Below are positions 30,824 through 61,395 of a DNA stretch of 64,000 nt, one piece after another; the stretch's first letter is position 1; each line of letters starts with the position of its first letter. The translations under genes were made by a program, and so were the position numbers. The DNA comes from an uncultured cyanobacterium (GTDB lineage: Bacteria > Cyanobacteriota > Cyanobacteriia > Phormidesmidales > Phormidesmidaceae), in assembly GCA_963793265.1 (NCBI GenBank), contig CAWBZI010000006.1, positions 704,001 through 768,000 on the forward strand, in the 5' to 3' direction. The notes beneath the pieces are model-generated. The model had not been told where the DNA came from. It made no database searches and saw only the letters and a program-made list of their open reading frames with translations.

Positions 30824-31065
30824 CAGCTAAGGCTTAGTAGTATCAACATATAAAATAAACATCTAACCATTAGATGAATTGAACGCGTCAACAAACACAC
30901 CAACAGGGATAGAACATATTCTCGCTTGCTGTGTAACTATACGATCAGCAACTACTGAGCTAATCACAAATAACCCATAGACGTATCCCTTTGGTAGAAC
31001 CCATAGGTAATGCGGGTCTGGAAATGTTTAGCCCTCAATTATACATACATAAGGAGATTCACTTC

Positions 31066-31485
31066 ATGAACATCGGTACATCAATCAAAAAAGGTCTTTT
31101 CGTATCAGCATCTGTTCTGTCCGCAGCAGGTTTGCTGGCAGTCATGCCGCTATCAGCTAGTGCTCAGATGATGGAAGATCGCGTGATTAGAGATGACGCT
31201 GCCGTAGAATCTTCACAAGAAATGCGTGAAGGCGACACCGCAATAACGGGTGACGAAGATACCATGCAAATGTCTGAAGATATGGATATGGACATGGACA
31301 CCACTGAAGCTGCTGAAATGGAGGACGACAGTTTCGTTCAAACAACTGAAATGGAAATGGAGGACACAGGCACAACTTACTCTACGCCTACAACAACGTC
31401 TCCAACCTATTCCAATGTCTCTGACGACGATGATAGTGACACATCCACAACTTATTCCAGCACGAGCCCACGTGCCCTTTGGTAA
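31066..31485 (+). CDS. Exported acidic Met/Thr/Ser-rich disordered protein ending in PRALW
   Basis: AAGGAG RBS, ATG 31066, signal peptide ending SASA-Q, low-complexity mature part. Confidence 0.8.
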   Translation: MNIGTSIKKGLFVSASVLSAAGLLAVMPLSASAQMMEDRVIRDDAAVESSQEMREGDTAITGDEDTMQMSEDMDMDMDTTEAAEMEDDSFVQTTEMEMEDTGTTYSTPTTTSPTYSNVSDDDDSDTSTTYSSTSPRALW

Positions 31486-31550
31486 ATTGACTGAAGTAAG
31501 CTACCTAACTAAGCTGCTCGGTTAGATGTTTGGTTAGATTAGGTAACAAC

Positions 31551-31591
31551 AAAAAGCCTCTCCTTTGTGAAATAGAAAGGAGAGGCTTTTT
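31551..31591. terminator. Bidirectional intrinsic terminator
   Basis: AAAAAGCCTCTCCTTT ... AAAGGAGAGGCTTTTT between convergent genes. Confidence 0.85.
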
Positions 31592-31669
31592 GATATGCTA
31601 TAAAAAATGTCTTCTAGCCTCTATAGCTGTGCATTCTTTGAGTTCAGTCTTACAAAAGTTACTCAATAG

Positions 31670-32365
31670 CTAAGGCTCAACGACAACAGGCGTACCAAGC
31701 GCGACCAAATCGTATAGCTCTCGAACGTGCTCATTATACATACGAACGCAGCCATGGGAGGCAGCAGTGCCAACTGATTCTCGATTAGGCGTGCCGTGGA
31801 AACCGATCACGTTATTATCGTCTGTCCAGAATGCAATCCAGCGATCGCCCAGCGGATTATCTGGCCCCGGTGCCATCACTTCATCGGTCAATGGATTTGT
31901 CCAACCCGGATCAACGAGCTTGTGAAACACGCTAAATTCGCCAGTAGGCGTTTCCCAACCGGCCCGGCCAACGGCTACCGGATAGCTAGCTTCTACCGTC
32001 TCACCCCGGTAAACATACACCTTACGCTCGCTTATCTTGAGTAAAAGCCGAACGGCTTGAGCCTCTGCGTTTTGATCTGTAGAGGTCGTAGCGTCCACCG
32101 CTGGTTCAGGCGCTACTACCGCATCGGGCACTGGTTGAGAAACTGGCTCGGTGCGACGCTCTGGAATAGTTCGCAGTAAGTCTCGTATCGTTGGCCTCGG
32201 CTGCGCGTCTGAGAGTGACTGAGCGCTCAATGTCTGAGCGGACTCACTAAGCCGATCCTCGGCAAGCGCATGGCTAGGACTTAGCGTACTTAGTAGTAGG
32301 CCACCGACGCCCGCAGCAAGCGATCGAAAGGCGAGCTGCCTGTAGCCATGTAACTTATGGTTCAT
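31670..32365 (-). CDS. L,D-transpeptidase (YkuD family), exported
   Basis: Signal peptide ending ALA; YPVAVG...TPTG, NPLG, GFHGT, ASHGCVRM. Confidence 0.92.
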   Translation of the reverse strand: MNHKLHGYRQLAFRSLAAGVGGLLLSTLSPSHALAEDRLSESAQTLSAQSLSDAQPRPTIRDLLRTIPERRTEPVSQPVPDAVVAPEPAVDATTSTDQNAEAQAVRLLLKISERKVYVYRGETVEASYPVAVGRAGWETPTGEFSVFHKLVDPGWTNPLTDEVMAPGPDNPLGDRWIAFWTDDNNVIGFHGTPNRESVGTAASHGCVRMYNEHVRELYDLVALGTPVVVEP

Positions 32366-57942: not shown

Positions 57943-59427
57943 TTACGAACCTACAGGCTCAGGAATCGTCACATCTAAAGGCACCAGTTCTGCACCTAAT
58001 GCGCTCAACGAAGGATCTATCTCCGCCATATTCCCCACGACTACCGTAATCAGCTTCTCTGGCATCAGTACCGCCTGAGCTGCCTCAAGCACCCCTTGAG
58101 CCGTCGCACTCTCTACTTGATCTCTAAACTGAAAAACAAAGTCTGATGGATAGTCGTAGTACTCATAGCGAATCAAGCGCGAAAGCGTCTGGTTAGGCGA
58201 CTGAAAATTGAACACAAAGCTATTGAGCACCGAATCTTTAGCAAAGGCCAGTTCCGTTTCAGTAATCGGCTGCTCGCGAACCTTCTCTAGCTCCTGATAC
58301 ATTGACTGAATAAATGGCACCGTCGCCTCAGAGCGCGTTTGCCCGCCACCGATAAAGATGCCGTTGTGGTCGTACCGAGGGCTCCAAAAGGCATACACGC
58401 TATAGGCCAAACCCTGCCGCGAGCGAATCTCGTTGAACAGTCTGCCCCCAAAGCCGTTAAGCACTTCGTTGAGCACAGCCATCTGGGCGTGATAGGGGCT
58501 GCTGAGTTCGCCGCCAATGTGACCAATATGAATGTAGCTTTGCGTAAGCTGCGGCTGATCGACAAAAAACAAACCGGCTTTTTGCTGTGAGCCCTCTGGC
58601 GGCTGAGGCACCGCCGCTACCGCGTCTGACTGCCATGCGCCCAGCGTGCTCGCAATCTGAGCCTTCATTACATCCGGGTCAAAGTCACCAACAATGCCCA
58701 AAATAGTGTTTTCTGGCGTGAGCGTGCGCTGATAGAAATTCACTGCATCTGCGCGGCTAATGTTCGCCAAATTGGCGTACTCTACCGTGCGAGCATAGGG
58801 GCTTTCCTCACCGTAAATCTGTTTGCTAAACTCTCTAGACACAATGTCGTCAGCGTCATCATTACGCCGAGCAATTCCACCTGCCGTACGGCTTTTAATC
58901 AGTTCAAACTGCTCCTCGTCAAAAGCAGGCTGAGTAATCACCTCAGCAAACAGGCCAAACACCGTTTCCAAGTCTTCGCTCAAAGACGAAAACCCGGCGC
59001 TACCGCTAGTGTCGCCAATACTGGTTTCTACCGAAGCGGCCTTTTGCTCCAAAATCTGATTTAGCTCACTAGGAGAATGGCGCTCGCTACCGCCCAAGCG
59101 CATGGCCTCGCCGGTAATGCCTGCAAGGCCCGCCTGCGGAGCATCCACCAAATAATCGCCCGTGCGGAAAGTCGCAGACCCGCTCACCAACGGGAGATCG
59201 TGATCTTCCATGAGGTAGACTACCAAGCCGTTTTCTAGCTCGTAGCGCTCGTATTCAGGAATTTGAATGTCGCCCAAGGGCGGAAACACAAGCTCCTCAT
59301 AAGGTTTAGCCTCAATTGCCTGCGCTGGACTGGGCCAGGATAGTGTCAGCAGCACCGTACAGGTAGCAGCAGCTAAAAACAAAAGCGGTAAAAGTTTTCT
59401 GCGAATGCGCCGTAAGTTCAAACCCAT
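57943..59427 (-). CDS. M16B peptidase, non-catalytic subunit, exported
   Basis: Signal peptide ending AQA; LENGL...EDHDLPLV, RLFNEIRSRQGLAYSV. No HxxEH. Confidence 0.9.
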   Translation of the reverse strand: MGLNLRRIRRKLLPLLFLAAATCTVLLTLSWPSPAQAIEAKPYEELVFPPLGDIQIPEYERYELENGLVVYLMEDHDLPLVSGSATFRTGDYLVDAPQAGLAGITGEAMRLGGSERHSPSELNQILEQKAASVETSIGDTSGSAGFSSLSEDLETVFGLFAEVITQPAFDEEQFELIKSRTAGGIARRNDDADDIVSREFSKQIYGEESPYARTVEYANLANISRADAVNFYQRTLTPENTILGIVGDFDPDVMKAQIASTLGAWQSDAVAAVPQPPEGSQQKAGLFFVDQPQLTQSYIHIGHIGGELSSPYHAQMAVLNEVLNGFGGRLFNEIRSRQGLAYSVYAFWSPRYDHNGIFIGGGQTRSEATVPFIQSMYQELEKVREQPITETELAFAKDSVLNSFVFNFQSPNQTLSRLIRYEYYDYPSDFVFQFRDQVESATAQGVLEAAQAVLMPEKLITVVVGNMAEIDPSLSALGAELVPLDVTIPEPVGS

Positions 59428-59493: not shown

Positions 59494-61272
59494 CTACCAC
59501 AAGCCTCTAACCGGCTCGGCGGCGGGCTCTATGGCGGGCTCTGGTGGCTGGGCTGAGCTAGTGCGATCGCCATCCAAACTCTCAGACGGTTCATTAGGCG
59601 GCTGCGTAGGCCCTTCAGGCGCTGTCCCTGGTGTGCCTTCATCAGGCGTCGGCACCGTTGGCTCTAGTGCTGGCTCTAATGGGGCGCTTTCCTCAGCAGA
59701 AATGAGCTTACCCACCGTCCGATTCTCAGGGCGGAAGGTTGCTCTAGCCACGCGCTGCACGTCAGCAGCACTCACCGCCTCAATTGCCTGAAGCTCTGCA
59801 AAAACATTGCGCCAGTCGCCCGTTTTAGCTTCGTACTCCGCCAGCAAACTTGCCATACCGTTATTAGAGTCCAATAGTCCTAATAATCCAGCTCTTGCCT
59901 GAGTCTTTACGCGCTCTAGCGTATCCACATCCACCGGCTCATCTTTCAACCGCTGAAGCTCTGCTTCCAAACCTATCGCAATTTCTTCGACGGTATGACC
60001 GGGCGCAGTTAACCCATACAGCAACAGCACCGAAGACTGCTTATCACCAGGAAATCCATTCGAGCTACCAATATCTAGCGCAATTTGAGGCTCCACAAGG
60101 GCCTTGTACAGGCGAGCAGTACGCCCCCCGGTCAAGATGCTGTCGATCATTGAGTACACCACATGATCAGAATCTTCAATCCCCGGTCGGTGAAAGCCCT
60201 CTAGATACCAGGGCTGCGAAATCAGCTCCAGCGTGAAATCGCGAGGCTCGTTTTGGTCAGACTTATCAACGTTCAATGCGGGCGGCGTTGCACGCGGCTG
60301 GTAGCGGCCAAAGTAAGCCTCTGCAAGCTGTCTTACCTGATTGGGATCTACGTCGCCCACAATCGCAGCAATTAGATTACTGGGGCCATAGTAAAGATCA
60401 AAAAAGGCTTGGACATCCGCGCGAGTCGCCTTGCGCAAATCTTCTTGATAGCCAATAACCGGACGGCGATAGGGGTTATTGGTAAAGGCTACTTCTGAGA
60501 AGCGCTCAACCATCTGGCCAATAGGCGAGTTGTCTACGCGCATTCGGCGCTCTTCGAGAATGACTTCTTTTTCTTTATAGAATTCTCTCAGTACCGGATC
60601 GAGAAAGCGCTCAGATTCAAGCGAGAACCACAGCTCTAGCTTATTAGAAGGCAGGCTATAAAAGTAGCGGGTAGCGTCGGCTGAGGTGGTGGCATTAAGG
60701 CCCGTGCCGCCCGCCTGCTCAATGATTTGACCAAATTTATTTTGCTCTACGTAAGAAGCAGCCTCGGCCTGAAGCGCTTCAAACTCGGCGGTCAGGGCGG
60801 CCATCTGAGCCTCGTCGCCTGATGCCTCTGCAGCTAGAAGCTGACTAAAAACCTCGTCGAGCTGGTCGAGAGCTGCTTTTTCGGCAGGATAGTTAGTGGT
60901 GCCGATGCGGGTAGTGCCTTTAAAGGCCAAATGCTCTAGGTAGTGAGCAACGCCAGTTTTACCATCTTCTTCATTTGCCGCGCCAACGTTGGCATACAGC
61001 ATCATCGAGACAACGGGGGCCTCGTGCTGCTCTAGCACGATAAACTTCATACCGTTATCTAGCGTAAATTCAGTGACTTCTTCGGCCACCCGGTCTAGAT
61101 AGGGCTGAATGGAGCTACCGGGCTGTTGTGCTAAAGCAGGCGGTGCGATCGCGCTGAGGCCAAACCAACAGGCCAGCGTCACTACAGCAATGCGATATGA
61201 CCATTGTGATAGGCGAAAAGAAGATAAAAGAAGAAAGGCCCTAGAAATTGTCAGGTAGCGGCAAAAACCCAT
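59494..61272 (-). CDS. M16B zinc peptidase, catalytic subunit, exported, with Pro-rich tail ending PVRGLW
   Basis: Signal peptide ending PALA-Q; GVAHYLEHLAFKGT (HxxEH), NATT, EERR. The start is uncertain (61272 or 61302). Confidence 0.92.
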   Translation of the reverse strand: MGFCRYLTISRAFLLLSSFRLSQWSYRIAVVTLACWFGLSAIAPPALAQQPGSSIQPYLDRVAEEVTEFTLDNGMKFIVLEQHEAPVVSMMLYANVGAANEEDGKTGVAHYLEHLAFKGTTRIGTTNYPAEKAALDQLDEVFSQLLAAEASGDEAQMAALTAEFEALQAEAASYVEQNKFGQIIEQAGGTGLNATTSADATRYFYSLPSNKLELWFSLESERFLDPVLREFYKEKEVILEERRMRVDNSPIGQMVERFSEVAFTNNPYRRPVIGYQEDLRKATRADVQAFFDLYYGPSNLIAAIVGDVDPNQVRQLAEAYFGRYQPRATPPALNVDKSDQNEPRDFTLELISQPWYLEGFHRPGIEDSDHVVYSMIDSILTGGRTARLYKALVEPQIALDIGSSNGFPGDKQSSVLLLYGLTAPGHTVEEIAIGLEAELQRLKDEPVDVDTLERVKTQARAGLLGLLDSNNGMASLLAEYEAKTGDWRNVFAELQAIEAVSAADVQRVARATFRPENRTVGKLISAEESAPLEPALEPTVPTPDEGTPGTAPEGPTQPPNEPSESLDGDRTSSAQPPEPAIEPAAEPVRGLW

Positions 61273-61395
61273 AGCAATCCAAAACTGCCCGATGAAAAAC
61301 ACTGCTATACAGCATAGGTTTTTTTGCCAGTTTTAGGGGTTTCTAATAGAGCAGCTATGTAAAACGGCCATTGCTTAATGCTTATTCATCAATCT

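Follow-up and report, generated by a model that had tools for sequence, protein, structure and literature searches.

Why does a small, predicted exported protein of an uncultured cyanobacterium end in P-R-A-L-W, and does the similar end of an unrelated peptidase 28 kb away mark a signal that both share? Both genes lie in the window, by which we mean the whole 64,000-nucleotide stretch of DNA analysed. The first (31066..31485, + strand, 139 aa) opens with an ATG at 31066, preceded by AAGGAG at 31051-31056, and closes with a TAA stop at 31483-31485, its final codons, CCA CGT GCC CTT TGG TAA (31468..31485, + strand), spelling P-R-A-L-W-stop, the first copy of the tag. Its first 33 residues (31066..31164, + strand), read by eye from the sequence, form a predicted Sec signal peptide with an A-S-A end and the junction ASA/Q after residue 33, as judged by inspection, not by a predictor. 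An acidic, disordered, low-complexity body follows, then a Ser/Thr-rich linker, then the tag, with zero Lys anywhere beyond the signal, so that each element lies where the original prediction, which proposed a portable C-terminal signal on exported proteins, had placed it. The protein has no folded cargo domain, and a Pfam and NCBIfam scan of it returned nothing above cut-off; the predicted signal peptide is retained in homologues P0242-P0245 and the SPRALW end in 4 of the 4 homologues found. Downstream, an inverted repeat flanked on either side by T/A runs (31550..31592, strand unassigned), read from the sequence as a likely two-way terminator though not listed by a consensus terminator scan (loop limit 3-8), separates this gene from a convergent one at 31670..32365 (- strand). 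The original prediction had named that neighbour an L,D-transpeptidase (LDT), and its match to PF03734 (E 2.3e-26) identifies it as a YkuD-family protein, with an export signal and an intact His/Cys motif.

The second copy of the tag, P-V-R-G-L-W-stop (59494..59514, - strand), ends an M16 peptidase (59494..61302, - strand, PF00675+PF05193) which carries an export signal and an added Pro/Glu linker, and whose terminus does read AEPVRGLW as first reported. The core of its homologues (n=120) stops near KLLSAES, beyond which the terminus is W in 39 and RGLY in 8, and the linkers between core and tag vary freely. A second exported M16-like gene, untagged and probably encoding a partner subunit, follows it at 57943-59427 (- strand). 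Beyond the window, R[AG]LW ends occur in 4 of the 21111 open-reading frames of at least 50 aa in the whole genome, and in 4 of its 4639 genes, where the frequencies of terminal residues would predict 0.05 (Poisson p 2.5e-7); five genes end in [RP][AG]LW against 0.09 expected. The tag is thus commoner at C-termini than chance and no longer depends on the two copies first noticed. The whole-genome scan added a fasciclin protein (C1:1386460-1387245), a disordered protein (C4:253849-254415) and a membrane-anchored protein with a PAVPALW end, the PVPALW variant (C1:518354-518923), and all five tagged proteins combine an N-terminal export segment with a floppy linker. Several long proteins on C1, C5 and C6, which we take to be CHAT-type, end in HP[FY]YWS[AG]FTMIG[NS]PW, a domain end unrelated to the tag.

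Across genomes the motif is six residues long, P-[VI]-[RPQ]-[GA]-[LM]-[WY], so that the R[AG]LW first described is real but shorter and narrower than the true tag, which is almost certainly a genuine portable unit. The last six positions of 122 complete tagged open-reading frames, in which the final five positions were imposed by the selection pattern, hold P in 106, V or I in 120, R or P in 122, then G or A, L in 120, and W in 122 of 122 by selection. A picocyanobacterial family of 120 unselected homologues ends in W in 111 cases, nearly all [VI]RGLW. A PVQGLW variant was also seen, the P[VI]P[AG]LW variant is without Arg as well as Lys, and Tyr can substitute for the terminal Trp. As had been claimed, a low-complexity linker comes before the tag (in the preceding 30 residues Pro makes up 18.6% against 5.0%, and Thr is abundant too), no membrane helix lies within the last 40 residues (0/122), and the carriers look exported: a hydrophobic segment lies at the N-terminus of 108 of the 122, compared with 1595 of 4639 background genes (34%), the former count being lowered by the spurious-looking open-reading frames retained in the set. 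Lysine is scarce, being found within the last 15 residues of 14/122 tagged proteins against 2510/4639 genes (54%), and 25 of the 122 carriers have none after residue 40. Among homologues the linker diverges while the hexapeptide stays; since linkers differ and M16 homologues end in W, in RGLY or in neither, the tag is gained and lost as one unit.

The carriers, in oxygenic cyanobacteria, are unrelated to one another and include soluble proteins, proteins anchored in the inner membrane and outer-membrane barrels. BLAST grouped 136 tagged open-reading frames into 45 clusters, a number inflated by low-complexity proteins, with six spurious-looking loci (L021, L031, L119, L236, L388 and L396) omitted from both the cluster and the neighbour analysis; the named cargoes are fasciclin, M16, DUF1400, ferritin-like, META, DUF3747 and outer-membrane barrels. 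For example, P0246 is an 8-strand-type outer-membrane barrel that ends in GFRYRF, continues through an Ala-Pro linker and closes with PIRGLW, and the junction between barrel end and linker weakly matches the OmpA model NF008071. L317 1-1521 (+ strand, G038) covers the C-terminal portion of a large outer-membrane barrel-like protein, to which a Pro/Glu linker and PVPALW are appended, whilst carriers such as L286 have their N-terminus held in the membrane. The tag is optional within families, seven other barrel homologues being without it, two of them from genomes with YkuD. We considered the tag as an outer-membrane beta-signal and rejected this, as most carriers are not barrels and the beta-signal of P0246 (..GFRYRF) is separate from the tag, some 40 residues ahead of it. 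Barrels, membrane-anchored proteins and soluble proteins appear to have only the periplasm in common, therefore the tag would be read there. Two carriers deserve mention in their own right. L043 3910-4392 (- strand) and its homologues P0001-P0120 are named 'Occludin/ELL family protein' without any Pfam match, which looks like a misannotation of a family of exported proteins. The Synechocystis PCC 6803 protein that sources name Sll1338 ends in PIRGLW, and one RNA-seq study places its gene in the top 50 by expression (PMC3564720 Table 2); the main text of PMC6878006 does not name it.

A strict DNA pattern, P[VIM]R[AG][LIMF]W-stop, run on 301 genomes of the phylum, matched 112 of them (102/136 within the class of the window, 10/165 outside it) with 179 matches against about 23 for a reversed control, whilst a very loose pattern gave counts at the control level, useless for counting. 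The 10 strict-pattern matches in non-photosynthetic relatives all proved to be chance on checking. An exact scan of all GTDB species gave at least 80 named loci; among the matches listed, 31 are in Cyanobacteriota and 49 in others, 28 of the 31 cyanobacterial loci have a long open-reading frame ending in the tag, and 2 of the 49 others have one of >100 aa. One of these two looks spurious, and the other, also among the matches listed, is a gene of picocyanobacterial type whose short contig carries the label Klebsiella. This tagged gene (L138 2001-2543, - strand, 6165-base contig, labelled uncultured Klebsiella) belongs to a picocyanobacterial family, and its contig was likely misbinned. The sole credible copy seen beyond oxygenic cyanobacteria is in a non-photosynthetic relative, Candidatus Caenarcanales, where L168 2001-3110 (- strand) encodes 369 aa with an export-like segment, a Pro/Gln linker and PVRGLW. 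The pattern matched viral contigs 28 times, with no credible tagged gene among them. The tag is thus cyanobacterial within what was searched.

The convergent LDT gene had been offered as suggestive only, but the adjacency holds well beyond the window. The genome has four YkuD genes, three of which flank tagged genes, and two of its five tagged genes adjoin an LDT when only six such slots exist among 4639 genes (p 1.7e-5). Loci fetched solely for their YkuD gene had a tagged direct neighbour in 5 of 39 cases, a 40th locus, known beforehand, having been kept out of this count. From the other side, an LDT directly adjoins 12 of 123 tag-centred genes and is not next to the other 111; profiling of neighbours, as proposed at the outset, singles out the LDT as the neighbour family shared by the largest number of cargo clusters (11). 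Tag-LDT pairs within 1.1 kb number 26 (15 same strand, 10 divergent, 1 convergent), and in genomes with a single YkuD gene that gene lies beside a tagged gene in 7 of 13. ThiO and ferredoxin were rejected as partners, their recurrence reflecting one syntenic locus of a fast-evolving family. At that locus a membrane-anchored, disordered tagged gene lies directly upstream of a thiO-like gene (L003 5355-5924, L034-L036, L047, L286), and this arrangement recurs across several families even though the tagged gene itself can barely be aligned.

Neither a protease family nor a secretion gene recurs among the neighbours of the 123 tag-centred genes, which weighs against two further readings. A signal that directs a further export step, either through the outer membrane or to surface display, would suit the two-step secretion layout of signal, cargo and C-terminal signal, and fasciclin-type cargoes, often surface or secreted proteins, are among the carriers. 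However, integral barrels and membrane-anchored proteins are tagged as well, and exosortase (PF09721) was not found in 5/5 tag-bearing picocyanobacterial genomes searched, which leaves this the most improbable reading of those weighed here.

The LDTs beside tagged genes look like ordinary YkuD folds. In the window LDT, H99, S112, G114, C115 and R117 are invariant in 46 relatives, and its predicted structure matches B. subtilis YkuD with an rmsd of 1.4 A. These enzymes are small and single-domain, with no wall-binding domain in Pfam. In a quick tree of 135 columns, which left out rows L006, L024, L105 and L113 and is weak evidence, the tag-adjacent LDTs do not form one clade and are absent from two clades of 9 and 10 rows. 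When the window LDT domain was modelled in complex with the C-terminal 32 residues of the tagged M16 peptidase, the scores were 0.24 and 0.25 against a mark of 0.32, which we weigh neither for nor against the pairing.

The phyletic profile points to the same enzyme. Our set of 73 hand-picked oxygenic genomes comprised all 34 without a strict match and 39 with one; they are related genomes, so kin are not independent. YkuD is present in 54, absent from 18 and broken in one, and the tag, verified as a real open-reading-frame end, occurs in 46 of the 54 genomes with YkuD against 0 of the 19 without an intact YkuD. The tag was sought with loose R, P and Q/K patterns, whose matches in the 19 proved on checking to be chance; the loose R and P patterns were applied to genomes other than G047 and G259. 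Both states, tag with YkuD and neither, are found inside families f13, f14 and f18, and in the YkuD-less G241 an orthologue of a tagged protein stops right after its domain, before linker and tag. The eight YkuD genomes without a detected tag are G047, G097, G113, G119, G123, G215, G259 and G273, all three f19 genomes being among them; in G097 the short clade is the only form of YkuD present, and G123 and G215 gave no more than partial matches. G074 belongs to a family most of whose members have neither YkuD nor tag; its YkuD match at G074:C1:274391-274726 has five internal stops and is likely a pseudogene. Single-protein searches in genomes without the tag or without YkuD, run without positive controls, returned no member of three cargo families.

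Small, streamlined genomes account for seven of the 19 losses, yet S41 tail proteases are retained in 19/19 tagless genomes and SLH proteins in 12/19, or 12/12 outside the seven smallest, so the loss is not a blanket loss of envelope genes. Tail-specific proteases recognise a hydrophobic C-terminus that is free and preceded by a disordered linker. This is what the tag offers, and on these grounds it could serve proteases of the periplasm or lumen, CtpA/Prc or HtrA for instance, as a degron or PDZ ligand. The universal retention of S41, whilst not strictly excluding this, and the proteases' failure to recur beside tagged genes make it very improbable, if marginally less so than a second export step. 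The rival partner families profiled were three only, HtrA not among them, and another, unrecognised partner may possibly have been lost alongside the tag. Taken together, genomic linkage and co-loss make a functional tie between tag and LDT very probable. The original prediction had named three options; the peptidoglycan-tethering one, with its LDT, thereby gains strong genomic support, and the protease or PDZ ligand and the secretion signal are disfavoured.

What the LDT might do with the tag is a matter of graded likelihood. We put at about even the chance that tagged proteins are tethered to peptidoglycan in an LDT-dependent manner, and most of that reading lies in a covalent donor chemistry which is plausible but on balance rather doubtful. 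A tagged protein with an export signal would reach the periplasm, where a cyanobacterial YkuD LDT would read the terminal hexapeptide and tether the protein to peptidoglycan. In described LDT reactions the protein is the amine acceptor and D-Ala is released, according to the excerpted text of PMC12729407, and the tethering amine, in the excerpts of PMC12274547 and PMC12729407, belongs to the C-terminal Lys of Lpp or OutB, to an internal Lys or to the N-terminal residue. As the tag has no Lys, an Lpp-type linkage is excluded for it, and as it offers no amine, it must act as donor if the LDT links it covalently. Cyanobacterial YkuD would then be a periplasmic sortase, an idea we hold tentatively and at somewhat longer than even odds: the C-terminal P-V-R-G-L-W would serve as acyl donor, and the catalytic Cys would cleave its final bond, Leu-Trp, as at mDAP-D-Ala, release the Trp and transfer the C-terminus so created to mDAP at its free amine, sortase-like, the Lpp reaction reversed, so that the protein is welded to mDAP. 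The literature searched yielded no precedent for an LDT that cuts an L-Leu-L-Trp bond. The window protein, which is signal, spacer and tag alone, might be a wall-bound spacer, or a substrate competing for the adjacent LDT.

Two readings keep the tie to the LDT and forgo covalent attachment. The tag could be a docking peptide, uncut and unlinked, that recruits, activates or inhibits the LDT or brings cargo to wall-remodelling sites. This would explain adjacency and co-loss equally well and require no new chemistry, it suits a terminal aromatic that hardly varies (W, sometimes Y), as a binding pocket would require, and several LDT neighbours (the window gene, L076 of 94 aa and L082 of 123 aa) are just signal, spacer and tag, as a regulator might be. 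It does not readily explain a tag on dozens of unrelated cargoes or on barrels at the wall-binding position of OmpA, and a small single-domain LDT without a Pfam wall-binding domain would be a poor anchor; we regard it as possible, at something like one chance in a handful or slightly better. Alternatively, the tag could bind the wall itself, non-covalently, at a structure that the LDT makes (3-3 cross-links or tripeptide stems), and be lost with it. Co-loss, the OmpA-like layout and the missing amine all fit, but six residues would be very short for an autonomous wall-binding module and the repeated adjacency to the enzyme suits a substrate or ligand better, so this is unlikely, though less so than the protease or export readings.

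Were covalent, LDT-dependent tethering by the tag correct, outer-membrane barrels, inner-membrane proteins and enzymes would all be pinned covalently to the cyanobacterial wall by a general route, in organisms for which, to our knowledge, no Lpp-type tether has been described. The tag gives cyanobacterial L,D-transpeptidases a candidate job and dozens of hypothetical proteins a shared address; a 2025 review of LDTs has 0 occurrences of 'cyanobact', and the text of PMC10936207 has no 'transpeptidase'. If covalent, the attachment would be a new LDT reaction, in which the donor is the protein, and would provide a tool of six residues with which to anchor proteins in the envelope of cyanobacteria. 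Sll1338, tagged and highly transcribed, makes the tag directly testable in Synechocystis PCC 6803.

The original prediction knew of no function for the tag, and the literature and the models bear this out: no description was found in the papers searched, most subscription journals lying outside that search, and no curated sorting-domain model of NCBIfam or Pfam matched any of the 4 + 13 + 32 tagged proteins scanned. The nearest systems each resemble it in part. OmpA has a barrel, an Ala-Pro linker and a periplasmic wall-binding domain, and P0246 repeats this layout, with barrel, beta-signal and Ala-Pro linker, but has a six-residue peptide in the position of the folded domain. LPXTG with sortase A, PEP-CTERM, GlyGly-CTERM and MYXO-CTERM likewise place one C-terminal motif on unrelated cargoes after a low-complexity linker, with gene context and phyletic profile pointing to one Cys enzyme, and sortase cuts its motif and joins the protein to the wall (excerpts of bioRxiv 10.1101/2023.06.07.544157). 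The tag differs from them in having neither transmembrane helix nor basic tail (0/122), and in a candidate enzyme that is YkuD, not a sortase or an intramembrane protease. The Coxiella and Brucella barrels, with N-terminal Gly-Gly and Asp-Ala, share LDT-dependent tethering and a short Lys-less terminal motif, but use a free N-terminal amine, whereas here the C-terminus is conserved and some N-termini lie in the inner membrane (excerpts of PMC12729407). In Braun lipoprotein and Dickeya OutB the counterpart is the Lpp box, which, in the excerpted text of PMC12274547, also comprises the six extreme C-terminal residues after a dispensable linker, is without a membrane helix, occurs on outer- and inner-membrane proteins, opens with V-R as the tag does and has a YkuD partner (for the tag, a candidate one); the six-residue box of OutB suffices to attach a reporter to the wall via LDTs. 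By the same excerpts, the Lpp box depends on a Lys at its C-terminus, through the amine of which it is joined, tolerates many changes and serves few proteins, whereas the tag ends in Trp, has no Lys, is tightly conserved and serves dozens of cargo families. The lack of a terminal Lys, a membrane helix and a basic tail thus places the tag outside the Lpp box and LPXTG classes despite a similar layout, and it is likely a C-terminal wall-sorting signal of a new sort, which belongs to none of the Lpp box, LPXTG and CTERM systems.
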